A stretch of 64,000 nucleotides of DNA. Source: Minisyncoccota bacterium. Lineage in GTDB: Bacteria > Patescibacteriota > Minisyncoccia > Phycocordibacterales > UBA9973. How positions within the stretch are numbered: the stretch's first letter is position 1; every line of letters starts with the position of its first letter. Both the position numbers and the translations under genes were made by a program. Under the pieces are notes generated by a model. That model was not told where the DNA came from. It worked only from the letters and a program-made list of their open reading frames with translations, and ran no database searches. The DNA lies in assembly GCA_041667145.1 (NCBI GenBank), contig JBAYFP010000001.1, forward strand, positions 17,958 to 81,957, in the 5' to 3' direction. Of the stretch, positions 1 to 50,270 are shown one piece after another.

Positions 1-158
1 AGGATGCATACCCTGTAGTCAGCTTTGCTGTACTACTGGGGTTCGAATAAGTTTGGTGAAAGGGTAGTAATTTACCCCATACCACTAACCACTATATCTC
101 TAGGAAGTTCACAATGTTCACATGTGCATAAGTGAACGTTGTCTTTTATTGAGAGAAA

Positions 159-2206: not shown

Positions 2207-2806
2207 ATGGTCAAATTGGTCAATCGTACAGATTTTGTGTCTAAAATTAAGGCTAAAAAGATTAGTCTTTTTTCTGGACGTGAGATTCAAACATTATTTG
2301 GAGTTTCTAAGGTTGCTACCACTGGCATATTGCATCGTTATAGCAAGCAAGGTTTTATCATCCAAATTAAACGAGGTTTGTATGCGTTTCCTGATGCTTT
2401 ACCTCCTGAATTGTATCTTGCTAATAAACTCTATGATCCATCCTATATCTCAAGAGAGTTTGCTCTGTCATATCGTGGGATAATTCCTGAGATGGTATAT
2501 GAAATTACATCAGTGACAACTAAGGCTACACAAAAATTTAAAGCATTAGGTAAAATATATTCTTATCGTACGATTAAAAAATCTGCTTTTACTGGGTACA
2601 CAGTAGAGAAACAGCAAGGTTTTACTTTTCGCATAGCAGATGCAGAAAAAGCATTTGTTGATACTCTTTATTATCGCGTTATTTTTGGAAAAAAACCTAT
2701 AAGTCGTTTTAATAAAGAAAAAATAAATAAAAATAAAGCACTTAAATATGGTGAACTTTTTGATAATCCTAAACTTATTGGTATACTAAAGAGAACATTA
2801 TCATGA
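2207..2806 (+). CDS. AbiEi-family antitoxin / transcriptional regulator (type IV TA)
   Basis: N-terminal wHTH-like pattern ...LFGVSKVATTGILHRYSKQGFIIQIKRGLYAFPD typical of AbiEi; stop overlaps start of the next gene (ATGA). Confidence 0.55.
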   Translation: MVKLVNRTDFVSKIKAKKISLFSGREIQTLFGVSKVATTGILHRYSKQGFIIQIKRGLYAFPDALPPELYLANKLYDPSYISREFALSYRGIIPEMVYEITSVTTKATQKFKALGKIYSYRTIKKSAFTGYTVEKQQGFTFRIADAEKAFVDTLYYRVIFGKKPISRFNKEKINKNKALKYGELFDNPKLIGILKRTLS

Positions 2807-3567
2807 TTGGACCAGAACTATTAGAAAATATTGCACGACAGGAACAAACAAGCATATTCCCGAATATTGTTCGTGAATATGTGCAACATTTGTTTTTAAC
2901 CGAGTTATATCAACTTCCAGAATCGGAGAAATTGCTTTTTAAAGGTGGCACTGCTCTGCGTATAGTTTATAATTCGCCACGTTTTTCAGAAGATTTAGAC
3001 TTTTCTTTATTTGGAGTTCCTTCTAATGAAATTGGATCATTTGTTGATCGTTTATTTCTTGACGTTCTTGCAAAACTTGAAAGTACAGGTATTCACATAG
3101 AAATCGATAATAAATCTGCTCGGACATCTGGTGGATACTTTGGTCTAGCTACTCTCAATACAAATGGTTATCCTCCTATAAACATTGAAATCAATATATC
3201 ATCTAGAGGTGGAAATCATATTCAAGGAGAAATAGATAGTATCACAAATAATTTTGTACCAACGTATACGCTTTATCATTTACCACAAAAAGATATGGTT
3301 GATGAAAAAATATTTGGTGCATTGATTGATAGGAAAAAACCTCGTGATTATTATGATTTATATTTTTTGATGCGTAAGGGGATGTTGTCTCCAGAGCAAA
3401 AAAAACATCTTAGTGAAGTTGCAAAAGAAATCATTGATAGTTCTAAACAAGTTGATTTTCAAGGAGAACTTGGAATATTTTTACCTGCAAGCCAACAATC
3501 TATTATACGTGATTTTCCCCAAACATTAGAAAGAGAAATGCGTAATCAACTTTCCTTTAATCAATAA
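2803..3567 (+). CDS. AbiEii/AbiGii-family nucleotidyltransferase toxin (abortive infection)
   Basis: hallmark FKGGTALRIVYNSPRFSEDLDFS motif of the DUF1814/AbiEii NTase family; 4-bp overlap with upstream AbiEi. Confidence 0.75.
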   Translation: MIGPELLENIARQEQTSIFPNIVREYVQHLFLTELYQLPESEKLLFKGGTALRIVYNSPRFSEDLDFSLFGVPSNEIGSFVDRLFLDVLAKLESTGIHIEIDNKSARTSGGYFGLATLNTNGYPPINIEINISSRGGNHIQGEIDSITNNFVPTYTLYHLPQKDMVDEKIFGALIDRKKPRDYYDLYFLMRKGMLSPEQKKHLSEVAKEIIDSSKQVDFQGELGIFLPASQQSIIRDFPQTLEREMRNQLSFNQ

Positions 3568-8440: not shown

Positions 8441-10111
8441 ATGGATAAAGATTTTTATAAAAACTTAAAAGTAGCAGGTTATTCTAGAAAATCATCTGAA
8501 GCAGAAGATAGACAAGTACTTTCTATAGGCTCACAAAAAGATGAGATAGAGAAAATGAAAGAATTAAATGGAATTACAGACACAATTTATTACGAAGACA
8601 GTAAATCAGCAAAAACTCCAGGAATAAGAGATCATTTTTCAAACATGATACAGGATATAAAAAATGGTAAAAGAAATGCAATTGCATGTTGGAAACCCGA
8701 CAGACTTGCAAGAAATATGGATGAGGGTGGAGAGATTATAGATTTATTACAAAGAGGAATTATCAAATCAATAATTACGCCTAGTAAAACCTATACACCT
8801 TCTGAACCAAGCTGGTCATTACTTCTTGAATTTGGTATGGCTAATCAGTTTAGTCGTGATTTATCTGTAAACGTAAAAAGAGGTCAAAATAAAAAAGCTA
8901 GAATGGGTATTCCACATGGATTAGCAAAAATAGGTTTTTTGAATGACAAAACTGAAGAAAAAGGAAATAGAAAATGGTTGATTGACGAAAAAAGATTTCG
9001 AATAATAAAAGAGGTATTTAAGGTATATCTAACTGGTAATTATTCTGGAGGTCAAATGTATGATCTAGCAATAAGAGCCGGACTTACTACACCAAAACAC
9101 AAACATAGTGGTGGTAATTCAATAACCCATTCTAGAATATATACAATATTAAAAGATACAATATATGCTGGTTTTTTTCATCAAGGAGGAGAAAGATACG
9201 AGTTAGATAAAACCTTACCTAGAATTATTACCGAAGATGAACACGAGAAAGTACTTAGAATGCTTTCTGGTAAAAATATACCAAAAACACAAACTCATCA
9301 ATCGATGTATGGCGGTTTTATAATATCACCTCAAAATAAATCCATAGGTACAGACTGTAAATTTCAAATTATATGTGAGTGTAAATACAAATTTTCTTAT
9401 ATTAATAAAACTCATTGTCCAAAATGTGGAAAAGAAATAATTTTAATAAAAAATCCAAAATATCTTGAGTATGAATATTATTACAATGTTGCCTTGAAAA
9501 AGAAAAAGTGGTCAATTAAAAATATTTCACAAAGTAAAGTTACTGATTTTTTATTAGAATTTGCGGATAAGTTTTCAATGTCCCCCGCTCTTGCAAATTG
9601 GTCCAGACGCCATATCCATGAAATTCATGATTCTGAAGTTGAATCAAAATTAGTGGTTGTAGAAAGTCAAAAGGAAAGGATTGAACAACTAGAAACAAAA
9701 AAGGAAAGATACCGTAATATGTTAGCTGATGAGATGATAGAAAGAGAAGAATACGAACATGACACAAAGAAATTTAGCGCCGAAATAGAAAAAATTAAAC
9801 AAAATTCACAAAACCAAGTAAATTGGCTACAAGAAGCTGAAAAAATAATTGACTTGGGGTTAGAAATGAAAAAAATAATCAAAAATGGAACCACAATGGC
9901 AAAAAGAGAGATACTTTCTAAACTCGGTTCGAACCTAATCTGGGACGAGGAAGAACTCAATATTATCAACAAAAAACCAATCCAAGTGCTGATCGATGGA
10001 CTTCTTTGGGCCAAACAAAAAAATCCTAAGTTCGAACCTAGTTCTATAGTTGATACATCAAGTCAGAATGATGTTTTTGAGGACATTCGTCCTATCTTGC
10101 TCCGGGGGTAG
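8441..10111 (+). CDS. large serine recombinase (resolvase/invertase catalytic domain + recombinase domain + zinc ribbon)
   Basis: N-terminal AGYSRKSSEAEDRQ..SIGSQ catalytic-serine motif, DRLAR, C-terminal CPKCGKE zinc ribbon; 556 aa; 3' end overlaps the tRNA 3' end. Confidence 0.85.
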   Translation: MDKDFYKNLKVAGYSRKSSEAEDRQVLSIGSQKDEIEKMKELNGITDTIYYEDSKSAKTPGIRDHFSNMIQDIKNGKRNAIACWKPDRLARNMDEGGEIIDLLQRGIIKSIITPSKTYTPSEPSWSLLLEFGMANQFSRDLSVNVKRGQNKKARMGIPHGLAKIGFLNDKTEEKGNRKWLIDEKRFRIIKEVFKVYLTGNYSGGQMYDLAIRAGLTTPKHKHSGGNSITHSRIYTILKDTIYAGFFHQGGERYELDKTLPRIITEDEHEKVLRMLSGKNIPKTQTHQSMYGGFIISPQNKSIGTDCKFQIICECKYKFSYINKTHCPKCGKEIILIKNPKYLEYEYYYNVALKKKKWSIKNISQSKVTDFLLEFADKFSMSPALANWSRRHIHEIHDSEVESKLVVVESQKERIEQLETKKERYRNMLADEMIEREEYEHDTKKFSAEIEKIKQNSQNQVNWLQEAEKIIDLGLEMKKIIKNGTTMAKREILSKLGSNLIWDEEELNIINKKPIQVLIDGLLWAKQKNPKFEPSSIVDTSSQNDVFEDIRPILLRG

Positions 10112-10416
10112 GGATCGAACCTACGACCAATCGCTTACACTTTATCTTCTATTACTAGAAGTGTGGACTATATCATCTCCATGTTCATAACTTATGAATT
10201 TAGGAGCAAGGCGCTTCGCGCTCTAATAAATATTAGAGAGCTACTCCAAAATGGATAGTCTCTACACCTTCCTCAATTTTGTAATTGAGGCTTGGCTCGG
10301 GATTACCCTAAAAGGGCTTCCCCGAATTCACCTTGTTGTTCAACCTACCTTTTGATAGGAAGCTGCGTAATTTTTTATCGACACAGGCGACCGCTCTACC
10401 GCTGAGCTACCCCGGA
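10100..10416 (-). tRNA. tRNA (probably Asn-GUU) interrupted by a group I intron in the anticodon loop
   Basis: 5' exon TCCGGGGTAGCTCAGCGGTAGAGCGGTCGCCTGT (10383-10416) and 3' exon TAAGCGATTGGTCGTAGGTTCGATCCCTACCCCCGGAG (10100-10137) fold into a 72-nt cloverleaf with anticodon loop CUGUUAA; exact splice junction not resolvable by eye. Confidence 0.7.
10138..10382 (-). ncRNA. group I intron (IC3-like, Azoarcus/cyanobacterial tRNA intron type)
   Basis: contains AATCCCGAGCCAAGCC and GGAAGGTGTAGAGACTATCC, matching the conserved P7/P3 region (GAGCCAAGC, GAAGGUGUAGAGACUA) of Azoarcus tRNA-Ile and cyanobacterial tRNA-Leu introns. Confidence 0.7.
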
Positions 10417-10561
10417 ATGTATTTAATTAATGAAAGAACTTTAATTATCTTAACAGAAAATGAGTAAAAAACAATAGAGTAGATTTATTATTGAATTTAA
10501 AGTATAATATGAATTATATTATTAATAATCAAAATCATAACCGTTTAAGGCGGTAAATTAT

Positions 10562-11849: not shown

Positions 11850-11965
11850 AAAAAGTGAAGAACGAATATTTTTGCCGGTACGGATTTTTTGAAGCTTAAA
11901 AAATCCTGAAGTTTTCGCGCCGTCGCGCTCAAAACCCCTTAAAAACATTGTTCTTCACTTTTTAT
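11850..11965. repeat. structured repeat element copy 1: conserved 71-nt core inside a locus-specific long inverted repeat
   Basis: core 11876-11946 CGGTACGGATTTTTTGAAGCTTAAAAAATCCTGAA..AAACCCCTTAAAAAC shared with 27798-27869; flanks AAAAAGTGAAGAAC / GTTCTTCACTTTTT pair. Confidence 0.7.
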
Positions 11966-12135
11966 TTTTCACAAAACTTGTCGTAGGCGTACTTATTAGA
12001 AAACATTGCGCAGGAGCTTAGAAAATAAAGGAGGTATCCCGGACTATTATTTTCTTGAGTGACGAGCATAGCAATCCGCCAGCTGGCGGATATGCGTGTT
12101 TTATAATAAGTATGCCAAGTAAAAAGATTTGTGAT

Positions 12136-12641: not shown

Positions 12642-14402
12642 ATGAAAAGCGAGACGAAGCAATGTCAAAACTGCAAACAAGACTTTACAATAGAACCAGA
12701 AGATTTTAATTTCTATGAGAAAATAAAGGTTCCTCCACCGACTTTTTGCCCACTTTGTAGGGCAGAAAGGCGATTTACTTTTAGGAATGAACGTAAGCTT
12801 TTTAAAGTAAAAGATTTTTATACTGATAAGGATATTTTTTCTTTATATCCAGCACGTGATAGTAAAAAAAATTTTACTCAAGAAGAGTGGTTTAGTGACA
12901 ATTGGGATGCATTAGAATATGGTCGTGATTATGATTTTTCTATACCATTTTTTAAACAATTTTTTGATTTAGAAAAAGTAGTTCCAGTTTGGCCGCTTCG
13001 AGTTGAATACGTCGTAAATAGTCCATATAGTGCTAATGCCTCAGCACTTAAAAATTGTTATTTATGTTTTAATTCAAGTCAATCAAAAGATTGTATGTAT
13101 AATAATGCAATAGACTTCAGTACAGACTGTATTGATAATTCCCATATTTTTCAATCAGAACGATGCTATGAATGTTTTTGGACGGATAATTCCTACCAAT
13201 GTTATTATTCTATAATTTGTAAAGAATCCCATAATCTTTATTTTTGTAAAAATTGTCTCGGATGCTCGGATTGTTTTGGATGTGTAGATTTAAGGAAATC
13301 CTCGTATTGTATTTTTAATAAGCAATATACAAAAGAGGATTATAAAAAGGAGATAGAGAATATGAAATTAAATACCATTTCTGGAGTTTCAAGAGCAAGA
13401 GAGAAGGCTCGAGTTTTTTGGTTGACTATGCCAACAAAATATCATCAAGGTTTAAAAAATTACGATTCGACTGGTTCTTATGTAACGAATTGCAAAAACG
13501 TAAAAGAAAGTTTTCTAATGAGAGAAGGAGAAAATATTAAATATTCTCAATATTTACAAGTTCCGAAAAATAAAGATTGTTATGATGCTACTGCATGGGG
13601 ACAGAATATGGAACTTAATTATGAAACTTGTCTTTGTGGGGAAAATTCTTTTAATATAAAATTTTGTTCAGATTGCTGGCCTAATTTTAAAGATTCTGAA
13701 TATTGTATAAGTATGTTTAGTTGCTCGGATTGTTTTGGATGTGTTGGTTTAAAGAAAAAACAATATTGTATTTTGAATAAACAATATACAAAAGAAGAAT
13801 ATAAAATTTTAGTAGAAAAAATTAAAAAACATATGGATGATATGCCTTTTGTTGACAGTAAAGAAAGGATATATAAATATGGAGAATTTTTTCCTATAGA
13901 ATTTTCTCCATTTGGTTATAACAATACAACAGCAATTCAGTATTTTAAAATGACAAAGGAAGAAGCAGAAAAAAAGGGTTATCCATGGAAAGAAATTGAA
14001 AGGGGTGAATATAATATCACTAAAAAAGTATCAGAACTTTCTGATTCTATTAACGATGTTGATGATTCTATCTTAAAAGAAGTAATAGAATGTGAAAACT
14101 GTAAGAGACCTTATCGTATTTTAAAGAATGAATTTATTTTTTATAAAAAAGAAAATTTACCTCTACCTGATTTGTGTGATGAATGTCGTTTTAGAAGAAG
14201 AATTAATGACAGGCTGGGGATTAAGTTGTATGAAAGGTCCTGTATGTGTAAAAGCGATTCTGATGAAACAGGTGTCTATAAAAATACTGTAGAACATATA
14301 CATGGTAATGAACCTTGTGGTGAAATATTTAAAACTGGATATAGCCCTGATTCTAAAGAGATAGTATACTGTGAGAAATGTTATCAGCAGGAGGTTTATT
14401 AA
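12642..14402 (+). CDS. cysteine-rich protein, paralog 1 (about 60 Cys; N- and C-terminal zinc-ribbon-like CxxC pairs; internal repeats)
   Basis: CQNCKQDF..CPLCR N-terminal ribbon; internal duplicated blocks ..CKNCLGCSDCFGCV.. and ..CSDCFGCVGLKKKQYCILNKQYTKEEY..; C-terminal CENCK..CDECR..CEKCY. Confidence 0.6.
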   Translation: MKSETKQCQNCKQDFTIEPEDFNFYEKIKVPPPTFCPLCRAERRFTFRNERKLFKVKDFYTDKDIFSLYPARDSKKNFTQEEWFSDNWDALEYGRDYDFSIPFFKQFFDLEKVVPVWPLRVEYVVNSPYSANASALKNCYLCFNSSQSKDCMYNNAIDFSTDCIDNSHIFQSERCYECFWTDNSYQCYYSIICKESHNLYFCKNCLGCSDCFGCVDLRKSSYCIFNKQYTKEDYKKEIENMKLNTISGVSRAREKARVFWLTMPTKYHQGLKNYDSTGSYVTNCKNVKESFLMREGENIKYSQYLQVPKNKDCYDATAWGQNMELNYETCLCGENSFNIKFCSDCWPNFKDSEYCISMFSCSDCFGCVGLKKKQYCILNKQYTKEEYKILVEKIKKHMDDMPFVDSKERIYKYGEFFPIEFSPFGYNNTTAIQYFKMTKEEAEKKGYPWKEIERGEYNITKKVSELSDSINDVDDSILKEVIECENCKRPYRILKNEFIFYKKENLPLPDLCDECRFRRRINDRLGIKLYERSCMCKSDSDETGVYKNTVEHIHGNEPCGEIFKTGYSPDSKEIVYCEKCYQQEVY

Positions 14403-14405
14403 ATA

Positions 14406-14460
14406 CCCAGACGTTGGACATCTGGGGATTATCCATAGTTCCAGATGTCCAACATCTGGG
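14406..14460 (+). other. pair of GC-rich hairpins (inverted copies of a 21-nt unit) between the Cys-rich paralogs
   Basis: CCCAGACGTTGGACATCTGGG (14406-14426) and CCAGATGTCCAACATCTGG (14441-14459), each self-complementary. Confidence 0.5.
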
Positions 14461-14471
14461 TGAAGAAAATC

Positions 14472-16238
14472 ATGGAGTATAAAAATGAAAATAAAATATG
14501 TCAAAACTGTAAACAAGATTTTACAATAGAGCCAGAAGATTTCAATTTTTATGAAAAAATAAAGGTACCTTCACCGACGTTTTGTCCACTTTGTAGGGCA
14601 CAGAGAAGATTTGCTTTTAGAAATGAAAAAAAATTTTTTCGTACAAAAAGCGCATTTTCTAATAAGGACATTTTTTCTTTATTACCCAAAGAAAGTCAAA
14701 GAAAAATTGTGACCGAAGAAGAGTGGCATGGAGATACATGGGACGCGATGGAATATGCTAGTGAAATAGATTTTTCAAAACCATTTTTGAAACAAATTTT
14801 AGATTTAGAAAAACTAATACCCATTTATAATCTAAATTGTCAATTTATGGTAAATAGTCAGTATTCAGGGAATGCGACAGCCCTTAGAAATTGTTATCTT
14901 TGTTTTAATTCTAACCATTCTGAAGATTCTATGTATGGGAATGCAATCGATAGCTCAAAGGATTGTGTAGATAATTCACATGTAAACCATTCTGAAAGAT
15001 GTTATGAATGTTTTTGGTTAGAAAATTGTTATCAATGTTATTTTTCGATAATATGTAAAGATTCTTTTAATCTATATTTTTGTAAGAATTGCGTAGGATC
15101 TTCAAATTGTTTTGGGTGTATGAATTTAAGTAAATCATCTTTCTGTATTTTTAATAAACAATATACAAAAGAAGAATATGAAATTGAAATAGAAAAAATG
15201 AAATTGAACACAATTTCAGGAATTTCAAAAGCTAGAGAAAAAGCACGTATATTCTGGTTAACTAAACCAGTAAAAAATCATCAGGGTTTGAAGAATTTGA
15301 ATTCAACAGGTTCTTATGTGACAAATTGTAAAAACGTAAATGATAGTTATTTAATTAGGGAGAGTGAAAATATGCGTTATTGTCAGTATATGCAGGTTTC
15401 AGGTAACAAGGATTGTTATGATACCTCTATTTGGGGAGAACACATGGAGTTGGATTATGAGACTTGTCTTTCTGGTGAAAATTCTTACAATTTAAAATTC
15501 TGCTTAAATTGTTGGCCAGCTTGTCGGAATAATGAATATTGTATTAATCTTTTTAGTACGACGGATTGTTTTGGTTGTGTTGGTTTGAAAAAGAAACAGT
15601 ATTGTATCTTAAATAAACAATATACAAAAGAAGAATACGAAATTTTGGTAGAAAAAATTAAGAACCATATGTATGAAATGCCATATGTTGATTCACAAGG
15701 TCTTGTTTATAAATATGGGGAGTTTTTCCCAATAGAATTTTCAGCATATGGATACAACAATTCGATTGCTTTTCAACATTTCCCGATTACGAAAGATGAG
15801 GCAGAAAAAAGGGGATATTTATGGATTGAAGTTCCTCATGGAGAATATACTATTACGAAAAAAGTTTCGGATCTCCCAGATTCGATTGATGATGTTGATG
15901 ATAATTTTTTAAGGGAAGTTGTAGAATGTGAAAATTGTAAAAATGCTTTTCGTGTCTTAGAGGATGAATTAAATTTTTTACAAAAAGAGAAACTTCCTTT
16001 ACCGACGATGTGTCATGATTGTAGACATAAAAGAAGGATAAGTGATAGATTGGAAATAAAATTATATGAAAGATCTTGTATGTGCAAGGGGGACTTTGAT
16101 GAAACTGGTGTTTATAAAAATACTGTAAAACATATACATAGTGATGAACCTTGCGGTGAAATATTTAAAACTGGATATAATCCTGATTCAAAAGAAATAG
16201 TATATTGTGAAAAATGTTATCAGCAGGAGGTATATTAA
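14472..16238 (+). CDS. cysteine-rich protein, paralog 2 (tandem duplicate of 12642-14402)
   Basis: roughly two-thirds identical to paralog 1 along full length; start moved to the Met aligned with paralog 1 (the ORF-track start 14445 overlaps the hairpin). Confidence 0.6.
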   Translation: MEYKNENKICQNCKQDFTIEPEDFNFYEKIKVPSPTFCPLCRAQRRFAFRNEKKFFRTKSAFSNKDIFSLLPKESQRKIVTEEEWHGDTWDAMEYASEIDFSKPFLKQILDLEKLIPIYNLNCQFMVNSQYSGNATALRNCYLCFNSNHSEDSMYGNAIDSSKDCVDNSHVNHSERCYECFWLENCYQCYFSIICKDSFNLYFCKNCVGSSNCFGCMNLSKSSFCIFNKQYTKEEYEIEIEKMKLNTISGISKAREKARIFWLTKPVKNHQGLKNLNSTGSYVTNCKNVNDSYLIRESENMRYCQYMQVSGNKDCYDTSIWGEHMELDYETCLSGENSYNLKFCLNCWPACRNNEYCINLFSTTDCFGCVGLKKKQYCILNKQYTKEEYEILVEKIKNHMYEMPYVDSQGLVYKYGEFFPIEFSAYGYNNSIAFQHFPITKDEAEKRGYLWIEVPHGEYTITKKVSDLPDSIDDVDDNFLREVVECENCKNAFRVLEDELNFLQKEKLPLPTMCHDCRHKRRISDRLEIKLYERSCMCKGDFDETGVYKNTVKHIHSDEPCGEIFKTGYNPDSKEIVYCEKCYQQEVY

Positions 16239-16290: not shown

Positions 16291-16812
16291 ATGAAAAATG
16301 AAAAAAAAAATCCCAGTACTAGAGCAAAGCTCAGTACAGGACAAGGGAAGATAGTAGTAGTTAGTGGGGGATTTGATCCACTTCATATTGGACATATTCG
16401 CTATATGCAAGAGGCAAAAAAACTGGGCGATAAATTAATTGTCATTTTAAACAATGATAATTGGAAAAGACAAAAAAGAAAGCATGTTTTTATGCCTGAT
16501 CACGAACGCAAAGAAATTATAGAAGCTTTAGCTTGTGTAGACAGGGTAATTATTAGCGGACACTCTAAAAATACAAAAGGTCCTAAAAATATGAGTGTGA
16601 GCAAAGAGTTGCTTAAAATTAAACCGCATATTTTCGCCAATGGTGGAGACAGGAATGAAGAAGATGCCAAAGATCCAAACTCCTCCCAATATTTTGATGT
16701 GGAAATGTGTAAGAAACTTGGTATCCAAATGGTTTTTAACGTAGGTAGAGGCGGAAAAATCAGGAGCTCGTCTGAACTTCTCAAAGAATATTCAAAAAAA
16801 ATAAAGAAATAA
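16291..16812 (+). CDS. cytidylyltransferase-like nucleotidyltransferase (HldE/RfaE domain II / TagD-like)
   Basis: VSGGFDPLHIGHIRYMQEAKKLGD (HxGH motif), ISGHS..; N-terminus includes a palindromic GTACT element. Confidence 0.6.
   Translation: MKNEKKNPSTRAKLSTGQGKIVVVSGGFDPLHIGHIRYMQEAKKLGDKLIVILNNDNWKRQKRKHVFMPDHERKEIIEALACVDRVIISGHSKNTKGPKNMSVSKELLKIKPHIFANGGDRNEEDAKDPNSSQYFDVEMCKKLGIQMVFNVGRGGKIRSSSELLKEYSKKIKK
16312..16340. repeat. GTACT-family palindromic element (short-loop form) inside the CDS N-terminus
   Basis: CCCAGTACTAGAGCAAAGCTCAGTACAGG; compare 44881-44916 and 50562-50594. Confidence 0.55.
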
Positions 16813-19929: not shown

Positions 19930-19942
19930 TAGAATAGGGACA

Positions 19943-20013
19943 CTTGTCCCGTACTAAATTTTTGATTACGGGATATAAGGATAAAGATTATTAGTTAAAA
20001 TTTTAGTACTGGG
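19943..20013 (+). promoter_or_regulatory. GTACT-family long hairpin abutting the hpf start codon
   Basis: arms CTTGTCCCGTACTAAATTTTTGA / AAAATTTTAGTACTGGG, then ATG; same arms recur at 48408-48480. Confidence 0.55.
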
Positions 20014-20412: not shown

Positions 20413-21317
20413 TTTTTATAATCTATCTCTTTTCCCCCTTCTGGAATAATCTTTTTTATTATAAACTGGTTATTTTCAAGTATCGCATCTGTAATTATTA
20501 TTCTTTTGCCATTCTTAAAAAAGAAAGTTCGGGGCCAAGTAGCATAAGCTCTGAATTTATTATAATTATTTACCCCATCATCATTTAAATTTATAAACCC
20601 GTCTTCTTTCTTAATTTTCTTGCAATAGGTGGCTTGAGATTCGTTTTGTTTTTCTCCCCCTGCGAAGGGGGAGTGTCCAGAGGACGAGGGGGTCTTTAAT
20701 ATTTTTACTAAAAGTTCTCCCCCAATTTTTATCATACGTTTACGTAATTCTCCTGCTTTTTCATCTGGCTTAATTTCTATTTTTTCTACAGCTATGATAG
20801 GTCCTGTATCCATCTTGTATTCCATCTTTTGGATAGTGACGCCCGTTTCTGTATCCCCATTTAATATAGCTGATTCTACAGGAGAGGCTCCACGATATTT
20901 GGGAAGTAGAGAATAATGAATGTTTATAGAAACTAGTTTAGGTAGATTTATTAAATCTTCTGGAATTATTTTTCCATAGGCGACTACCAGAAAGAAATCT
21001 GGTAAGGATTTGCTTTTAGCGGGTGTCTCGCAGGCTGACGAGCCGAGAGGCAGCGCTGTGCCAGTAGGCACAGACAGCGACCCGATAAAAGTAGAATCCT
21101 TACCAGATAGAATCTCGGGTTGCAGATAGGGGACATTGTTATTTATTGCCCAAACTTTTACGGGTGGGGGAGTTATGAGCATTTTACGTCCTTGTGGTTT
21201 ATCGGGAGCAGTGATTATAAGCGATGGCATATAGCCGTTTTCTTTTAGAATTTCTAATGTTTCGGAAGCGACATCTGGTGTTCCCCAGAATATGAAATTT
21301 AAATTTTTTGTATTCAC
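20409..21317 (-). CDS. fmt: methionyl-tRNA formyltransferase
   Basis: HYSLLPKYRGASP motif, N-terminal formyltransferase domain; carries two GC-rich palindromic inserts. Confidence 0.85.
   Translation of the reverse strand: MNTKNLNFIFWGTPDVASETLEILKENGYMPSLIITAPDKPQGRKMLITPPPVKVWAINNNVPYLQPEILSGKDSTFIGSLSVPTGTALPLGSSACETPAKSKSLPDFFLVVAYGKIIPEDLINLPKLVSINIHYSLLPKYRGASPVESAILNGDTETGVTIQKMEYKMDTGPIIAVEKIEIKPDEKAGELRKRMIKIGGELLVKILKTPSSSGHSPFAGGEKQNESQATYCKKIKKEDGFINLNDDGVNNYNKFRAYATWPRTFFFKNGKRIIITDAILENNQFIIKKIIPEGGKEIDYKN
20654..20673. repeat. GC-rich hairpin CTCCCCCTGCGAAGGGGGAG inside fmt
   Basis: 8-bp perfect stem in AT-rich coding context; encodes extra low-complexity residues. Confidence 0.45.
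21054..21079. repeat. GC-rich palindrome CGCTGTGCCAGTAGGCACAGACAGCG inside fmt
   Basis: 7-bp stem CTGTGCC/GGCACAG inside an insertion encoding GSLSVPTGTALPLGSS. Confidence 0.4.
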
Positions 21318-21349: not shown

Positions 21350-21931
21350 CTATTTTACAGGTAGCTCCTCTTTTATATCTTTAGCATGGTCGATAAAGAG
21401 GATACCTTTTAGGTGATCTGTTTCATGTTGGAATATTTGAGCTAGAAGGCCAGATGCACCTCTTTGGAATTTTTTGCTGTTTTCATCATAAGCAGTAATT
21501 AGAGCCTTTTTTGATCTATGAGTTTTTCCATAGAGCCATCTGACGGACAAACATCCTTCAGGAAGCCATTCTTTTTCACGAGATAATTTTGAAATTTTTG
21601 GATTGATAAAAACTAGATCTTTTAGCATTTCTTCATTTTGGATTTTTTCAAATTCTTGTTGGCCTCCTACAAAATCTTTGTGAAAAATCTTTCCTGATAC
21701 TACGAAAATAGAAAGTTTGTATCCTATCTGAGGGGCAGCGATAGCTACCCCGTCACTTTGGCTTTTCAAAGCTTGAGACATTTCTTTTATTATTTTTCTT
21801 ATCTTAAGAGTTTTAATCTCGCCAATCGGTACATCTTTTGTATTTTGATGTAAAACTCTATCTTCCCCGCCTGCAACGCTATGCGTAGCATTGCGGGCAG
21901 GTTTTTGATTAGCTTGTAAAATTTTCTTCAT
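21350..21931 (-). CDS. def: peptide deformylase
   Basis: GVAIAAPQIG, EGCLS, HETDHL motifs; def-fmt operon order. Confidence 0.85.
   Translation of the reverse strand: MKKILQANQKPARNATHSVAGGEDRVLHQNTKDVPIGEIKTLKIRKIIKEMSQALKSQSDGVAIAAPQIGYKLSIFVVSGKIFHKDFVGGQQEFEKIQNEEMLKDLVFINPKISKLSREKEWLPEGCLSVRWLYGKTHRSKKALITAYDENSKKFQRGASGLLAQIFQHETDHLKGILFIDHAKDIKEELPVK
21866..21901. repeat. 36-bp GC-rich palindromic element in frame inside def (family B)
   Basis: CCCGCCTGCAACGCTATGCGTAGCATTGCGGGCAGG; near-identical copy at 58111-58146 inside valS. Confidence 0.7.
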
Positions 21932-23861: not shown

Positions 23862-23991
23862 GTTGCTATTTTAGCACAAAAAAGTCTTGACACAATGGGG
23901 GAATATGTTTTGGAATAAATTATTCCCCTACACCAGGTGAAGGGGAATCACCACCCCCAACCCCCTCCTCCACAAGGAGGGGATGAAGTTA

Positions 23992-24000
23992 TGTTATAAT
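23992..24000 (+). promoter_or_regulatory. extended -10 TGTTATAAT 6 nt upstream of the pth ATG (leaderless-type)
   Basis: TGTTATAAT-agaatt-ATG; identical architecture at gap and rpiB. Confidence 0.5.
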
Positions 24001-27773: not shown

Positions 27774-27887
27774 AAAAGAGCAAAAGATAAATTTTTGTCG
27801 GTACGGATTTTTTGAAGCTTAAAAAATCCTGAAATTCTCGGCTCGACAGCCTCGAAACCCCTTAAAAACTTATCTTTTGCTCTTTTA
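27774..27887. repeat. structured repeat element copy 2 (core 27798-27869 inside a 23-bp perfect locus-specific inverted repeat)
   Basis: flanks AAAAGAGCAAAAGATAAATTTTT / AAAAACTTATCTTTTGCTCTTTT; second internal hairpin shows compensatory changes vs copy 1. Confidence 0.7.
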
Positions 27888-27894
27888 TTTTGTA

Positions 27895-32642: not shown

Positions 32643-33995
32643 ATGAACTTCTTGGGTAGAAAAAAAGAGGGTAGGAAGCTGTCTGGGAATATTTTATTTT
32701 TCTTGATTTTTTTTGTTTTTATTTTTGGGTTAGTGTTTTTCTCTGTTGTAGAGGCAGATTTTACAAGTACTAATTTTAAGCTCGAAAATCCAATTAATAT
32801 AATTAGCGGAGAACAATCAACATCACCGAGTTTTAAATATCTATCTACTACTTCTCAGTTAGTGCAAGGCCAGAGTACTAGTACTAATTTTACTCAAAAC
32901 GCAGGTTTTTTATATTTTCCAATAGCTACCTCACCTGTCTTATCTGCAACAGCCGGAGATGCACAGGTAGTTTTAAATTGGACTTCTGCTATAGGAATTT
33001 TAGCTAACATAACAAGTTATGAAGTGGGAATAAGTACTAGCTCGGGTGGAACATATACGTATACTTCAGTTGGAAATGTTCTGACTGATACGAAAACATC
33101 TCTTACAAACGGGACTCCATATTATTTTAAAATTCGTTCTTTTACTGCAGGACTTTTGTTAAGTGAATCTGCTATTGTGAGTGCGACACCTGTAGCTACA
33201 ATTATTCCTCCTCCAGGTGGCGGAGGCGGTGGAGGTGGAGGTGGAGTCCCACCACCAGCTCAAACGGGAGTAATTTTTTCTGGTAGAGCGTATCCATTAA
33301 GTAAAGTTAGTTTTCTAAAAGATGGACAACTAGCGCTTTCAACTATTGCTGGTCCGGATAGTAATTTTACTGGAAGTTTGACTAATCTTTCAGCAGGTAA
33401 TTATAACTTTTCTGTATATGGTGAAGATAAAAATGGTTTACGTTCAACTCCATTTAGTTTCCAGGTATTTGTGACATCAGGAGCGACTACAAACATTAGT
33501 GGGATATTTATTGCTCCGACGATTGCTGTAGATAAAAGTGAAGTAAAAAAAGGAGATAATATAGCTATCTTTGGACAAAGCGCTCCTTCATCAGAAATTG
33601 TCATCAGTATAAATTCTGCACAAGAATTTTTTAATAGTGCAGCTAGTGATAATAATGGTATATACTTACACAATTTTGATACATCTGTTCTCGAGCTTGG
33701 TAATCACTCCACAAAATCTAAAGCTTTAAAAAATGGTGAGATCAGTTCTTTTAGTAATATAGTAGGTTTTATTGTTGGAACAAAAAATATACTTGCAAAA
33801 GCACCAGAAAAAAGTGATAAATGTGATTTGAATGAAGATGGGCGTTGTAATCTTGTAGATTTTTCTATTGCAGCATTTTGGTATAAAAAACCTCTAAGTG
33901 AAGAATTCAAATTGAGAGAAAAGAAACATTTAAATGGAGACGGGAAAGTCGATTTGGTTGATTTTAGTATAATGGCCTTTTATTGGACAGGGTAA
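32643..33995 (+). CDS. secreted/anchored protein with fibronectin type III domain, Gly/Pro linker and C-terminal dockerin repeats
   Basis: FN3-like VVLNWTSA..YEVGISTSSGG..YYFKIRSF; PPPGGGGGGGGGGVPPP; dockerin pair DLNEDGRCNLVDFSI / LNGDGKVDLVDFSIM. Confidence 0.55.
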   Translation: MNFLGRKKEGRKLSGNILFFLIFFVFIFGLVFFSVVEADFTSTNFKLENPINIISGEQSTSPSFKYLSTTSQLVQGQSTSTNFTQNAGFLYFPIATSPVLSATAGDAQVVLNWTSAIGILANITSYEVGISTSSGGTYTYTSVGNVLTDTKTSLTNGTPYYFKIRSFTAGLLLSESAIVSATPVATIIPPPGGGGGGGGGGVPPPAQTGVIFSGRAYPLSKVSFLKDGQLALSTIAGPDSNFTGSLTNLSAGNYNFSVYGEDKNGLRSTPFSFQVFVTSGATTNISGIFIAPTIAVDKSEVKKGDNIAIFGQSAPSSEIVISINSAQEFFNSAASDNNGIYLHNFDTSVLELGNHSTKSKALKNGEISSFSNIVGFIVGTKNILAKAPEKSDKCDLNEDGRCNLVDFSIAAFWYKKPLSEEFKLREKKHLNGDGKVDLVDFSIMAFYWTG

Positions 33996-44829: not shown

Positions 44830-44880
44830 TTTTGGAATCAAAAGCTTTTCTGCTAATATGAATTTATGGATTTAAAACAC

Positions 44881-44916
44881 CCCGGTACTAGAGCAAAGCT
44901 TCAGTACGGGGCAGGC
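44881..44916 (+). promoter_or_regulatory. GTACT-family palindromic element (short-loop form) upstream of lepA
   Basis: CCCCGGTACTAGAGCAAAGCTTCAGTACGGGGCAGG. Confidence 0.55.
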
Positions 44917-44927
44917 ATTAGAAATTT

Positions 44928-46811
44928 ATGAAATTAGGAAATATTAGAAACTTCAGCATAATAGCTCATATTGATCATGGGAAGAGTACCTTGGCAGATC
45001 GAATGCTTGAGATTACTCATACTATTCCAGAACGTAAAATGCGCGACCAGGTGTTAGATACTATGGAGCTTGAACGTGAACGTGGAATTACTATCAAAAT
45101 GCAACCTGTGAGGATGGAATTTTCCCCGAATTCCCCGAAACCAGGTTTAGGGGGAATTCCCCTAAACCTGGTTTCGGGGAAAAATGAGACTTATGTTTTA
45201 AACCTTATAGACACTCCTGGACATATAGATTTCTCTTATGAGGTATCTCGCGCCCTAAAGGCTGTAGAGGGGTCTATTTTGTTGGTTGATGCAACACAGG
45301 GAGTACAGGCGCAAACACTTACTACGCTTAATATGGCGCGTGAGGGAGGCATCAAGATCATCCCTGTTCTGTCTAAAATAGATTCACCTTTGGCCCGTGT
45401 GGAAGAGGTAAAAAAGGAGGTTATAGAGCTTTTAAATTGTGATTCTAATGATGTTCTTATGGTCTCAGGACGTACAGGTGAAGGAGTGGAAAATTTGTTA
45501 CAAGAGATCATAAAACGTGTTCCACCACCAAAAGAAAATTACCAACAAGGTGAAAATATTTTACGTGCTCTTGTTTTTGATTTTAAATATTCAAGCCATA
45601 AAGGTGTGATAGTTTTTATTCGATTACTTGATGGGCAAGTAAAGAAAGGAGAGAGTTTAATTTTTTCAGTTTCAGGAGAGAAATTTAGTTCTCTTGAAGT
45701 TGGTACTTTTTCTCCTGAAGAAACTCCTAGGGATTTTTTGTCAGCAGGAGACACAGGATACATTGTCACAGGTATTAAAAGGCCAGGTATAGCTTCTGTT
45801 GGAGATACCATTACTAAAGAAAAAAATCCATTACCTCCGCTTCCTGGATACATGCAACCGATGCCTGTCGTTTGGGCTTCTGTTTTTCCTGAAGACGCGG
45901 ATGACTTTATGGAGTTAAAGGCCTCATTAGGTAAATTAAAACTTTCGGATTCTTCTTTTTCTTATGAGGAAGAATCTTCAGGTTCATTGGGGCGGGGTTT
46001 TCGTTGTGGATTTTTAGGAATGTTACATTTGGAAATAATTACAGAAAGATTAAGACGAGAATTTAATTTAAAATTAGTAATCACAACACCTTCTATTACT
46101 TACGAAGTTGTTATGAAAAATCCTTCTATAGTTTCAGGGCATTTTGGTAAAAAAGTAAAAATATATTCTCCATATTTTTTCCCAGATGATGGAAATATAG
46201 AAACAGTTCAAGAGCCTTGGGTTGATGTAAAAATAATTTCTCCAGCAAAATTTTTAGGTAATATTATGCAACTTCTTTTCGACCATGAAGCGGAAGTAAG
46301 AGAAACAGATAATTTTGGTAATAATCGTTCTTCTTTATCTGTCAGAATGCCACTTCGTGAACTTATGCGTAATTTTTTTGATGAATTAAAAAGTGTAACA
46401 TCTGGCTATGGATCTATTTCTTATAAAATAGGGGAAATGAGAGAAGCGAATGTCACTCGACTCGATATTCTTGTAGCGGATGAAGTCGTTCCAGCTTTTT
46501 CGAGAGTTATAGCAAAAAAGAGAGCGGAAGAAGAAGCAGAAAAAGCTGTTGAAAGGCTAGAAGGTATTTTACCAAGACAGATGTTTACTTTAAAAATACA
46601 GGGTAGAGCTTTAGGGCGTATTATTTCTTCACGTACAATGTCTGGCATGAAAAAAGATGTCACCCAGCACATGTATGGTGGAGATATCACTCGTAAAATG
46701 AAGCTTCGTGAGAAACAGAAAAAAGGGAAGAAGAAAATGAAAGAGCGAGGCAGGGTAAATATCCCACAGGATGTATTCTTAAAAATGATGCGTTCGGGGA
46801 ATGATAATTAG
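44928..46811 (+). CDS. lepA: elongation factor 4 (LepA)
   Basis: GTPase motifs AHIDHGKST, DTPGH; LepA C-terminal domain; carries in-frame palindromic insert. Confidence 0.9.
   Translation: MKLGNIRNFSIIAHIDHGKSTLADRMLEITHTIPERKMRDQVLDTMELERERGITIKMQPVRMEFSPNSPKPGLGGIPLNLVSGKNETYVLNLIDTPGHIDFSYEVSRALKAVEGSILLVDATQGVQAQTLTTLNMAREGGIKIIPVLSKIDSPLARVEEVKKEVIELLNCDSNDVLMVSGRTGEGVENLLQEIIKRVPPPKENYQQGENILRALVFDFKYSSHKGVIVFIRLLDGQVKKGESLIFSVSGEKFSSLEVGTFSPEETPRDFLSAGDTGYIVTGIKRPGIASVGDTITKEKNPLPPLPGYMQPMPVVWASVFPEDADDFMELKASLGKLKLSDSSFSYEEESSGSLGRGFRCGFLGMLHLEIITERLRREFNLKLVITTPSITYEVVMKNPSIVSGHFGKKVKIYSPYFFPDDGNIETVQEPWVDVKIISPAKFLGNIMQLLFDHEAEVRETDNFGNNRSSLSVRMPLRELMRNFFDELKSVTSGYGSISYKIGEMREANVTRLDILVADEVVPAFSRVIAKKRAEEEAEKAVERLEGILPRQMFTLKIQGRALGRIISSRTMSGMKKDVTQHMYGGDITRKMKLREKQKKGKKKMKERGRVNIPQDVFLKMMRSGNDN
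45124..45179. repeat. 46-bp near-perfect palindrome inserted in frame in lepA (family C)
   Basis: CCCCGAAACCAGGTTTAGGGG-gaatt-CCCCTAAACCTGGTTTCGGGG (45133-45179), with a partial extra half-copy 45124-45132; adds about 14 aa before DTPGH. Confidence 0.75.
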
Positions 46812-48407: not shown

Positions 48408-48480
48408 ACTTGTCCCGTACTAAATTTTTGAGTAAAACAAATGGTCAATATTAATAACAATTTAAAATTTTAGTACTGGG
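48408..48480 (+). promoter_or_regulatory. GTACT-family long hairpin abutting the glycerate kinase start codon
   Basis: arms identical to 19943-20013 (CTTGTCCCGTACTAAATTTTTGA .. AAAATTTTAGTACTGGG-ATG), loop differs. Confidence 0.55.
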
Positions 48481-49776
48481 ATGAATGAAAGACTTATCAA
48501 AAATTTTGACGATTTAGCAACGACAGAAAATCGCAAGATAGCTTTAGAAATAATAGAAGCAGGGCTTGGTGCTATAAATACGAGCAAAGTGATTAGTTCT
48601 CTGGTTTCTCTTACTGGTGATGTTTTATCAGTTGCAGGTAAAAAATTTGATCTTACTAAGTATAAAAATATAAAAGTTGTTGGTTTTGGTAAATCTTCTT
48701 GTGAGGGAGCTTTAGCAATAGAGAAAATTTTGGGAGCTAGGATAACTAGCGGAGCTGTGATTGGACTTCAGAAGGCTGATTGTAAATATATTGAAACTTT
48801 TGCTGGCACACACCCAAAGCCATCCGAGGAAAACATTAAAGCAGGGGAAAAGATATATGAGATTATAAATGGTTCAAAAGAGGATGACCTTATTATTGTG
48901 CTTGTCTCTGGTGGGGGTTCTTCACTCCTTTGTTACCCTGAAAGTGAATATAAAGAAGGAGCTAGACTCTATGATGCTTTTCTAAAATCTGGCAAAACGA
49001 TAACAGAAATAAACACAGTTAGGAAACATCTCTCATTGTTTAAAGGTGGAGGATTAGCAAAAATAGCATATCCTGCGACTATCGTTGGGCTTATTTTTTC
49101 AGATATTCCTGGAAATGATTTTAAAAATGTTGCTTCTGGTGCGACATATAAAGATGACACTACTATAGAAGATGCTCAAAAAATTATTATAGAAAATAAC
49201 TTAGGGGAATTTAATTTAATTGAAACACCAAAAGAAGATAAATATTTTGAAAATGTTTTTAATTTTATTCTTGTTTCAGATAAAACTGCGGTAGATGCGA
49301 TGGCTCAAAAGTCGAGAGAGTTTAATTTGGGAGTAAATATTCTTTCTACTGAATTATACGATGAGGTAGATGAAGCGCTCGGAAAAATATTTAAAGATAA
49401 AAGTGATAGTTCTGTCGTTTTGGCTGCTGGTGAGCCTAGAATTGTTGTAAAAAAAGAAGCGGGTAAAGGTGGGAGAAGTCTTCATATGGCTCTTTCTGTA
49501 GTTGCCAAAAAACTTATAAACAAAGAAGATTTTATGAATTCTGTTTTTATATCCTTTGCCTCTGACGGTATGGACAATAGTGATGCCGCGGGAGCTATTG
49601 TCGATAAAAATACAATAGAGAAAATAGAGAAATTAAATTTAAATGTTGATGATGCTTTAGAGCGTTTTGATTCCTACCCAGTTTTCGAAAAATCAGGTGA
49701 TATGATCATGACAGGTCCTACAGGTGCAAATGTTTCAGATTTGATGTTACTTTTGACGAAAAAAAATAATTTATGA
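48481..49776 (+). CDS. glycerate 2-kinase (MOFRL family)
   Basis: MOFRL-type N- and C-terminal domains (..VVGFGKSS.., ..LVSGGGSSLL..). Confidence 0.6.
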   Translation: MNERLIKNFDDLATTENRKIALEIIEAGLGAINTSKVISSLVSLTGDVLSVAGKKFDLTKYKNIKVVGFGKSSCEGALAIEKILGARITSGAVIGLQKADCKYIETFAGTHPKPSEENIKAGEKIYEIINGSKEDDLIIVLVSGGGSSLLCYPESEYKEGARLYDAFLKSGKTITEINTVRKHLSLFKGGGLAKIAYPATIVGLIFSDIPGNDFKNVASGATYKDDTTIEDAQKIIIENNLGEFNLIETPKEDKYFENVFNFILVSDKTAVDAMAQKSREFNLGVNILSTELYDEVDEALGKIFKDKSDSSVVLAAGEPRIVVKKEAGKGGRSLHMALSVVAKKLINKEDFMNSVFISFASDGMDNSDAAGAIVDKNTIEKIEKLNLNVDDALERFDSYPVFEKSGDMIMTGPTGANVSDLMLLLTKKNNL

Positions 49777-50270
49777 AAAATAATGAAGATAACGTTGCAT
49801 ATATAGATGGAGCAAATCTACACAAGGGAATGAAGGCTCTAGATTGGGAATTTGATTACGGGCGTTTTAGAGTTTGGTTAAAAGAAAAATATCGTATTCA
49901 ACAAGCTTATTTATTTTTAGGATTTATTCCAAAATATAAAGATCTTTATACAAAATTACAAGAACAAGGGTACACTCTTGTTTTTAAAGAAGTTATTTTT
50001 GATGGTGATGGAAAAGCAAAAGGAAATTGTGATGCAGATATCGTTGTTCACGCCATGCAAGATGCCTATGAGAATAAATTTAATAAAGTGGTTTTGATTT
50101 CTAGTGATGGTGACTATGCTCCATTAGTTAAATTCCTGAAAGAAAAAAATAAAATTGAATTTATTTTATCTCCATATGATACAAAAAAGTGTTCGATTTT
50201 ATTAAAAAGAACTGGAGTAAAAATATCTTATATTTCTGACCAGAAAAATATTCTTAAAAAGAGTACTTAA
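49773..50270 (+). CDS. NYN-domain (LabA-like) protein
   Basis: VAYIDGANL, CDADIVVHAM, LISSDGDYAPLV. Confidence 0.6.
   Translation: MKNNEDNVAYIDGANLHKGMKALDWEFDYGRFRVWLKEKYRIQQAYLFLGFIPKYKDLYTKLQEQGYTLVFKEVIFDGDGKAKGNCDADIVVHAMQDAYENKFNKVVLISSDGDYAPLVKFLKEKNKIEFILSPYDTKKCSILLKRTGVKISYISDQKNILKKST

Follow-up and report, generated by a model that had tools for sequence, protein, structure and literature searches.

A GC-rich hairpin repeat of Patescibacteria that probably spreads at the DNA level into spacers and, in frame, into housekeeping genes

Introduction

How does one short palindrome come to stand both inside bacterial genes and in the DNA between them? The question is raised by a 64,000-nucleotide stretch of a Minisyncoccota genome (GenBank assembly GCA_041667145.1, contig JBAYFP010000001.1, positions 17,958–81,957), which we analyzed at its full length and call the window. 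A preliminary description of this DNA had pointed to three copies of a palindromic element, in the first codons of a cytidylyltransferase-like gene, upstream of lepA and inside the enolase gene eno, and had likened them to the Rickettsia palindromic elements (RPEs). The host belongs to Candidatus Paceibacterota (Patescibacteria, or candidate phyla radiation (CPR)), and the G+C content of the window is 33%. The genomes of CPR bacteria are very small and compact, and classical mobile DNA is considered scarce in them. We report that the sites in the window are copies of one dispersed 33–36-nt GC-rich stem-loop repeat native to Patescibacteria. We favor, with a probability of roughly 0.7, a selfish hairpin element that spreads at the DNA level and is filtered by selection for in-frame loop insertions.

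Results

A covarying hairpin family in Patescibacteria

We searched a database containing one genome per GTDB species (596 Gb) with the pattern CCCCN{9,13}AAGCTN{3,4}TACGGGGCAGG and located at least 118 matching loci, compared with ∼11 expected by chance (our own estimate from 596 Gb, 20 specified bases, 10 gap combinations and uniform base composition). The matches listed, to which the counts of copies given below refer, comprise 123 instances and 85 distinct sequences with a unit length of 33–37 nt. By their record titles, nearly all of them come from metagenome-assembled genomes (MAGs) of Patescibacteria/CPR, with labels such as Nomura-, Kaiser-, Uhr-, Wolfe-, Taylor-, Nealson- and Niyogibacteria, Kazan, "Paceibacterota" and "Saccharibacteria"; a minority is labeled Armatimonadota, Neomarinimicrobiota, Cloacimonadota or otherwise. 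Viral contigs contain no match to the pattern.

The unit begins with (A)CCCC, followed by one or two unpaired purines, a 5-bp stem and a bulged A. Its inner part is a 4-bp stem (NAGC/GCTN) capped by an AA, AAA or GAA loop, and its 3' part consists of GGGG, which forms the outer pairs with CCCC, and of a single-stranded CAGG(C) tail. The apical GC(G/A)AAGC is similar to d(GCGAAGC), a DNA mini-hairpin of great stability, which we take as a lead only. We aligned 73 of the 85 distinct sequences (alignment A1) and built the covariance model R1 from them. A single structure fits A1, with an interrupted stem of 13 bp and 88.9% of the cells paired. The covariation score is 0.246 compared with 0.060 in shuffles, and none of 500 shuffles attains the observed value. 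At the three pairs that the search pattern leaves free on both sides, GC, CG, AU and UA all occur. The flanking nucleotides are A at position −1 (79% of copies) and C at position +1 (64%), and we find no conserved target motif in the flanks of the copies beyond these two.

Run on the window with filters off, R1 scores S3 with 55.4 bits, S2 with 54.2 bits (44879–44917) and S1 with 45.9 bits (16310–16347), at E-values from 1e-11 to 2e-9 (Table 1). These scores are partly circular, as S1 and S2 are among the 73 seed rows and an identical S3 33-mer from another genome is a third; all seed rows other than S1 and S2 come from other genomes. R1 also returns a fourth copy, S4 (5–42, minus strand, 40.8 bits, E = 4e-8), which is absent from the seeds, and its match is thus independent confirmation. 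All three sites of the preliminary description are present as described, in a total of four copies in 64 kb. Predicted DNA folds of S1–S4 are better than those of shuffled sequences (z from −2.95 to −4.16; S1 −4.16, S4 −3.87). The 12-mer GTACGGGGCAGG occurs twice in the window (0.03 expected), and GTACNGGG seven times (1.24 expected). Rfam gives no match at the sites at the gathering threshold and, at E-values up to 10, nothing at S2 and only noise at S3. Our R1 matches, together with stem covariation among the 85 distinct relatives, agree with the earlier view that the sites are copies of one element rather than convergent hairpins.

Insertions in enolase, a cytidylyltransferase and lepA

S3 is in frame in eno, as had been proposed; the insert comprises 11 residues (33 nt) and not PEPEQARYGAGPDG, as PDG belongs to the host loop. 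Among 120 close enolase homologues, 30 read ELRD-PEPEQARYGAG-xDGKG, whereas most read ELRD-x-DGKGV. The 33-nt unit (GA^(unit)^N) is the whole difference between filled and empty alleles, and no sequence is duplicated. The carriers are scattered on a rough neighbor-joining tree calculated with the insert columns masked, corresponding to at least 21 state changes, and the insert also occurs on an unlinked GKGVKKAI background (P0039, P0055, P0063 and P0094). The identical S3 33-mer recurs in other genomes, where it lies in different genes (L019 and L038). A second copy of the S1–S4 family is located ∼230 codons downstream in the enolases of L001 and L002 (CCCCAAAGGAAAGCAAGCTTCCTACGGGGCAGG); its inner stem covaries with S3, and R1 matches recur at this second site in L128 and L132–L134. 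In the enolase copy of L122 pairing is lost, and the copy has decayed without compensation.

Aligned to solved enolases, the S3 segment appears as extra residues in the ELRD...GKG loop, the canonical version of which contains KRY. Judged from the codons, this likeness of ...KRY.GKG to the S3 peptide is coincidental, because the tyrosine is encoded by the element's TAC, which is fixed by the search pattern in every copy collected. The refuting condition set in the preliminary description, the same peptide in unrelated enolases, thus does not overturn the insertion reading, and the closest Paceibacterota enolases are without the segment. An AlphaFold model of the enolase keeps the fold (mean predicted local distance difference test (pLDDT) of 85.7) and places the S3 insert in a low-confidence loop (means of 60 and 57 for the 10-residue blocks spanning residues 51–70); another inserted segment (residues 264–273) has a pLDDT of <50. 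The eno gene holds at least two further patchy inserts, PARNASGIADAGGG (Table 1) and KLFRPRS (residues ∼329–335, RKLRENNKKLFRPRSSLLVVGDD), the latter found in 12 of 120 enolase orthologues.

An N-terminal 12-residue insert, P(S/G)TRAKLSTGQ(G/E), is found in 4 of 121 cytidylyltransferase sequences (the query, P0121, P0178 and P0199; query plus 120 matches), the usual tail being a short Lys-rich stretch followed by KIV(A/M)V-SGGFDP. The differences of S1 from the family consensus fall mostly on third codon positions (ACG to ACA, GGG to GGA and CAG to CAA), and its outer stem is eroded (CCCA/AGGA) via apparently synonymous G-to-A changes. To the extent that this can be read from the sequence, the changes are consistent with decay under AT pressure.

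We compared 38 lepA 5' regions, from the window and from 37 other loci. Most of them start with ATGGATTTAAAACAC-ATACGA, encoding MDLKHIR. The window retains this ATGGATTTAAAACAC start and its upstream sequence at 44866, followed by S2 in frame after codon 5 (CAC), by CATTAGAAATTT and by a second start, ATGAAATTAGGAAAT. The resulting relic open reading frame (ORF) runs on through S2 to a TGA that shares bases with the ATG of present-day lepA (ATGA). S2 does end where the preliminary description had placed it, upstream of the lepA start, yet it is not simply part of an untranslated region, as it lies in frame within the relic start. L157 has a copy at the same lepA position, with a compensatory C:G to G:C change relative to the window copy, and L175 has another copy between duplicated lepA starts. 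In all three genes, ortholog alignments show copies missing from most close orthologues, as expected for the lineage-specific insertions that had been anticipated. Inside the lepA coding sequence we also noted a near-perfect 23-bp GC-rich hairpin (45119–45184, CCCCGAAACCAGGTTTAGGGGGAATTCCCCTAAACCTGGTTTCGGGG, −46 kcal/mol), and LepA has 627 residues in the window and 601 in L003.

Placement, frame and orientation of the copies

Fifty of the 123 instances are located inside ORFs of at least 90 residues and 73 in spacers (∼60% non-coding, within a small non-coding fraction); in the window, three of four copies are found in present or relic coding sequence. Genic copies are oriented sense in 44 cases versus 6 antisense (p = 3e-8). 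Spacer copies between co-directional genes lie on the same strand in 27 cases versus 15 on the opposite one (p = 0.09). Among 40 copies deep inside genes, 29 have a unit length divisible by three (mostly 33 nt), compared with 16 of 78 copies elsewhere, where units of 34 and 35 nt prevail. The copies leave ORFs open and are spread over genes from N- to C-terminus, and many spacer copies precede a start codon by 10–40 nt, a distance of 13 nt recurring.

All three sense frames are used, yielding peptides such as DPEGKQASYGAG, TPKESKLPTGQ and PRTRASSVRGRQ, and copies in unrelated genes also give YGAG. The mean hydropathy ranges from −1.1 to −1.25 in the sense frames and from −0.1 to +1.3 in the antisense frames. 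Most of the genic orientation bias is thus explained by the hydrophilic nature of the sense peptides, without invoking RNA. Sense-strand G-U pairs show no enrichment relative to A-C mismatches (7 versus 11–20), and this signature of sense-RNA structure is therefore not seen. Taken together, spacer and genic sites, the use of all frames with occasional antisense copies, and the second enolase site are explained only by spread at the DNA level, the origin that the preliminary description had assigned to the element.

Long-loop relatives and other hairpins

Two relatives of 66 and 67 nt in the window have a longer loop (Table 1). Read against the direction of the downstream gene, the long-loop form is CAT/CCCAGTACT ... 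AGTACGGG/ACAAG, with termini as in S1 and an AT-rich core. A family label spanning both forms, as used before, is justified by these shared termini. The 66–67-nt family is also present in L063, L066, L088, L107, L124, L129/L131 and L163/L164, and its end abuts the start codon in every case (GGG/ATG, once GGG/GTG). In L001 and L003 the corresponding site 5' of the MOFRL gene holds no element, and ...TAAAATAAAAA directly precedes the ATG. We dropped a promoter inside the long-loop form (TTGAGT-17-TTAATA by eye), as a consensus scan did not call it.

A second GC-rich palindromic family, CCTGCCCGCAATGCT..GCATAGC..TGCAGGCGGGG, with one strand ending in GGGCAGG, has three members in the window (Table 1). 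Its eno insert, PARNASGIADAGGG, is patchy among orthologues, being complete in P0018, P0025, P0026 and P0036 and shortened to PAR-HGGG in P0003, P0045 and P0047. More GC-rich stem-loops are found at 20643–20703 and 21006–21092 (fmt), 21717–21768 (def), 33194–33277, 60741–60823 (tsaD) and 23920–23995 (spacer). This suggests that the window genome contains several families of inserted hairpins, not one.

The variant CCCCGAACAGTCGCAAGCTCCTTACGGGGCAGG, which fits the search pattern and was seen in Armatimonadota, Neomarinimicrobiota and Cloacimonadota MAGs, was excluded from R1, as its inner part is not hairpin-like by eye. Loci of the form CCCC(C)GAACAGTCGCAAGCTCCTTACGGGGCAGG (L006, L007, L018, L031, L035, L044, L046, L055, L061, L093 and L098) have ends as in the family, and in the Armatimonadota loci L035, L055, L093 and L098 the variant is found within homologous proteins as FP(E/K)QSQA(P/L)YGAG. 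The variant in these three phyla may reflect either mis-binning or a wider distribution.

Other features of the window

The window also encodes a LOOT RNA (RF03000, 7766–7897, minus strand, 77 bits) and a group I intron (RF00028, 10145–10456, minus strand, 66.7 bits), which apparently interrupts a tRNA-like gene; tRNA-like GC-rich ends are located at 10074–10139 and 10370–10426. A large serine recombinase with Resolvase and Recombinase domains (8441–10111, plus strand) adjoins the intron, and the region may be an integration hotspot or an island boundary. We further found an AbiEi/AbiEii toxin-antitoxin pair (2207–3567), three copies of a 37-nt repeat (GCTCCAGACTTGGGAGGATGTTCGAATG...) with Shine-Dalgarno sequence and ATG (449–485, 1520–1556 and 2037–2073), and a 118-nt direct repeat of 77% identity in two spacers 16 kb apart (11851–11968 and 27774–27891). 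Two tandem paralogous ORFs (12642–14402 and 14445–16238; 586 and 597 residues, no Pfam match) are 72–82% identical in DNA sequence and carry an internal repeat with 459-nt spacing. An NYN-domain gene, encoding a predicted RNase, lies between the MOFRL gene and eno (49773–50270); as these two genes abut in L001 and L003, the NYN gene is an insertion in the window lineage.

Table 1. Element copies, host genes and related hairpins in the window
Feature	Position	Strand	Remarks
S1	16311–16346	+	36 nt, TCCCAGTACTAGAGCAAAGCTCAGTACAGGACAAGG; codons 7–19 of the cytidylyltransferase ORF; in-frame N-terminal tail, encodes PSTRAKLSTGQG
S2	44880–44915	+	36 nt, CCCCGGTACTAGAGCAAAGCTTCAGTACGGGGCAGG; ends 12 nt 5' of the lepA ATG (44928)
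S3	50562–50594	+	33 nt, CCCCGAACCAGAGCAAGCTCGGTACGGGGCAGG; in frame in eno, encodes PEPEQARYGAG between ELRD and xDGKG
S4	7–41	−	CCCCAGTAGTACAGCAAAGCTGACTACAGGGTATG; at the window edge; fourth copy, newly found
Cytidylyltransferase-like gene (PF01467)	16291–16812	+	host of S1
lepA	44928–46811	+	ORF; host or neighbor of S2; synteny and Pfam families in L001 and L003
eno	50404–51717	+	437 residues; host of S3
Relic lepA start	44866–44931	+	21-codon upstream ORF, MDLKH-PGTRAKLQYGAG-IRNL*; reads through S2
Long-loop relative	19948–20013	−	66 nt; end abuts the ATG of an hpf-like gene (20014); weak R1 match at 19941–19975 (−)
Long-loop relative	48414–48480	−	67 nt; exactly between the 2-hydroxyacid dehydrogenase stop and the MOFRL (glycerate kinase-like) ATG
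Second palindromic family, in eno	51187–51228		plus-strand gene; encodes PARNASGIADAGGG
Second palindromic family, in def	21856–21901		minus-strand gene, 21350–21931
Second palindromic family, in class-I aminoacyl-tRNA synthetase gene	58101–58146		3' end of minus-strand gene, 58051–60249

Discussion

We propose that a selfish unit is duplicated as DNA and enters fresh sites, spacers and genes alike, as shown by its presence and absence among orthologues and by the diversity of its host sites. The stem covariation across copies suggests that the hairpin itself may be recognized or required. A trans-acting enzyme working on the hairpin in single-stranded form would most likely do the copying, much as with repetitive extragenic palindromic (REP) sequences and their REP-associated tyrosine transposases (RAYTs), or with IS200/IS605 elements. 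Selection would then filter the landings, and the frame and orientation statistics suggest that in genes it is in-frame units that survive, mostly in the 33-nt form and mostly sense. The three frames would provide hydrophilic peptides of 11–12 residues which, by these statistics and by the enolase model, may be tolerated in surface loops and N-terminal tails. Copies may subsequently decay, like S1 and the L122 enolase copy, or stay unchanged, like the enolase copy in four lineages.

Several observations weigh against a selfish element of this kind. Among 50 window ORFs compared with Pfam we found neither an HUH/Y1 nor a DDE transposase, and a weak test, a tblastn search with IS200 TnpA and RayT queries, returned nothing significant in 1.73 Mb of locus fragments. 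No insertion is seen between near-identical genomes, and the patchiness could partly reflect recombination among enolase alleles: in most enolase carriers the insert goes together with a linked motif further downstream, GGMKKAIWNVEN, and P0007 looks chimeric or recombinant. At ∼1 copy per 65 kb over 0.8 Mb of DNA from syntenic relatives, the density is modest. REP/RAYT and IS200/IS605 elements leave no fixed target duplication. Here, 16 of 120 copies (∼13%) have flanking direct repeats of ∼9–32 nt compared with 2.4 expected from random positions in the same loci (8 versus 0.5 at a score of ≥11), and such repeats are not predicted by a clean REP/IS200-type mechanism. Finally, the S3 33-mer is 33/33 identical in the window, L001, L003 and L123, while flanks of 117–120 nt, alignable without indels in the window, L001 and L123, are ∼79–85% identical. 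This comparison rests on four to five sequences, as a metagenome scan for enolase relatives added only L122, L123 and L125 as carriers at the S3 site (site A). The conservation is too high for neutral selfish DNA and points to constraint, homogenization or repeated re-insertion. The 33/33 identity is not predicted by neutral selfish DNA, and the decayed L122 copy is not predicted by a required signal. The flanking repeats often abut the element and begin with CAAGA or CAGGA (L021, L022, L040, L105, L110 and others). Doublets are rare: among 59 R1 matches in 47 loci we found one inverted (L063) and one tandem (L027) pair, the rest being singlets.

Rather than a selfish element, the hairpin and its CAGG tail could be a binding or processing site on mRNA or DNA for a conserved CPR factor, beneficial to the host and kept by selection, with the insertions distributing the signal; mRNA stability, translation initiation or genome maintenance are examples of its possible roles. 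The 33/33 identity of the enolase copy between ∼80% identical flanks and the sequence conservation across CPR classes would fit such a signal, as would the sense bias in genes with a weak one in spacers, the many spacer copies 10–40 nt 5' of starts, the location of both S1 and S2 at gene 5' ends, the compensatory C:G to G:C difference between the window and L157 lepA copies, and the long-loop relatives that always abut a start codon. We nevertheless regard a host signal as unlikely, as S1 and the L122 copy decay without compensation, genic positions are scattered from N- to C-terminus, and most enolase and cytidylyltransferase orthologues do well without a copy. In addition, there is no excess of G-U pairs over A-C mismatches and hence no sign of a sense-RNA structure, Rfam has no match at the sites, and the genic sense bias is largely accounted for by peptide hydropathy.

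Slightly less probable still is a history in which each site was hit once long ago, with patchiness resulting from loss and homologous recombination and mobility no longer ongoing. Linkage of GGMKKAIWNVEN to the insert in most enolase carriers, the recombinant appearance of P0007, the low copy density and the lack of a transposase in the Pfam scans of 50 window ORFs and in the 1.73 Mb covered by tblastn are all in its favor. It is difficult to reconcile with the occurrence of the insert on the GKGVKKAI background as well, with enolase being hit at two sites in different lineages, with identical 33-mers in unrelated genes of different genomes and with 85 distinct covarying variants; an old neutral insert should also not stay 33/33 identical across diverged genes. 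Very improbable, and rejected by us on frame usage, is a peptide module selected for the action of ...YGAG in proteins: PEPEQARYGAG is well conserved among enolase carriers and the canonical enolase loop also has RY, but the same DNA is read in three sense frames to give the unrelated ...QASYGAG, ...SKLPTGQ and ...RASSVRGR, ∼60% of the copies are non-coding, and the model shows the insert as a loop of low confidence. Chance or convergent GC-rich hairpins, or assembly artifacts, come last and have next to no probability. Short GC-rich palindromes are indeed common in the window, but R1 E-values reach 1e-11, a blind fourth match was recovered, and the family was recovered from >100 independent assemblies. 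The selfish hairpin element hence remains our preferred reading. As a more speculative extension, which we hold only tentatively and think rather unlikely, our analysis could describe a long-lived, superphylum-wide hairpin population kept by a vertically inherited trans-acting enzyme, as in REPIN-RAYT systems. It would be a regular source of loops in housekeeping enzymes, its 67-nt long-loop form would supply sequence exactly at start codons, and the perfect conservation of some intragenic copies would reflect maintenance or function, not recency.

How does the family relate to known repeats? RPEs are palindromic repeats found in frame in housekeeping genes and in spacers, and they are translated as additional peptide segments that fit the protein fold (PMC10969869). 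The CPR element shares with them its presence in unrelated housekeeping genes and spacers, its patchiness among relatives and, judging from the open ORFs, its apparent translation as an extra peptide, which the fold may accommodate in the enolase model. RPEs, however, measure ∼100–150 bp, have family consensus sequences (RPE-1 to RPE-10) and are restricted to Rickettsia, whereas the present unit has 33–37 nt, occurs in an unrelated superphylum and uses three frames; no sequence relationship is expected. The analogy drawn in the preliminary description therefore holds for behavior, that is in-frame insertion into housekeeping genes, but does not extend to membership, as the unit is ∼4 times shorter and its lineage unrelated.

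A REP is an imperfect GC-rich palindrome of ∼35 nt that has a bulge and a conserved single-stranded tail of 4 nt and leaves no fixed target duplication (Nunvar 2010; Bertels and Rainey 2011; Ton-Hoang 2012); it is extragenic by definition, has GTAG at its 5' end, reaches hundreds of copies per genome and is mobilized by a RAYT (Y1 HUH). The CPR element has a similar build, with an imperfect ∼35-nt palindrome, a bulge and a 4-nt single-stranded tail, likewise lacks a fixed target duplication, occasionally forms an inverted doublet (L063) and persists as a family across related genomes. It differs from REPs in that ∼40% of its copies are intragenic, in its conserved tail, which is a 3' CAGG(C), with GTAG occurring only inside the stem of some subfamilies, and in its density of ∼1 per 16–65 kb rather than hundreds per genome. 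Inverted doublets (REPINs), the common form of REPs, are represented once among 59 R1 matches, and no RAYT was found in the 50 window ORFs or, in a weak test, by tblastn in 1.73 Mb of genome fragments.

The GC clusters and short hairpin repeats in mitochondria of yeast, sponges and placozoans are regarded as mobile DNA whose mechanism is unknown (PMC7813641). Like the CPR element they are short GC-rich hairpins that spread in intergenic and coding DNA of compact genomes and vary between close relatives; they are organellar, however, and their sequences are unrelated. In some yeasts, such mitochondrial inserts are bypassed by the ribosome and not translated. The multiple-of-three rule argues for translation of the CPR copies, unlike these bypassed inserts. 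In-frame intragenic fusions also occur with MITEs, which are miniature transposable elements with inverted repeats (PMC10969869). MITEs such as Correia and ERIC are similarly non-autonomous and have inverted-repeat ends, but they are 50–500 bp long with defined target-site duplications, whereas our unit is a single hairpin, filled and empty enolase alleles differ by the 33-nt unit alone, and flanking repeats, which vary in length, accompany only ∼13% of copies. In the literature that we searched on palindromic, REP, RAYT or MITE elements in CPR, Patescibacteria or Parcubacteria we found no description of the family. It is a real and previously unannotated hairpin repeat family, with RPE-like behavior and a REP-like build, which fits the definition of neither.

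The finding poses the biochemical question of which enzyme recognizes the hairpin. For annotation, it implies that starts and N-termini near element copies can be mis-called, as in lepA. The element would provide a sequence marker for CPR contigs in bins and a natural experiment on the protein positions that tolerate a standard insert. It would account for many odd lineage-specific insertions in CPR protein alignments, and an element writing loops of 11–12 residues into enolase, LepA, nucleotidyltransferases and many core proteins would be a so far undescribed route of divergence.

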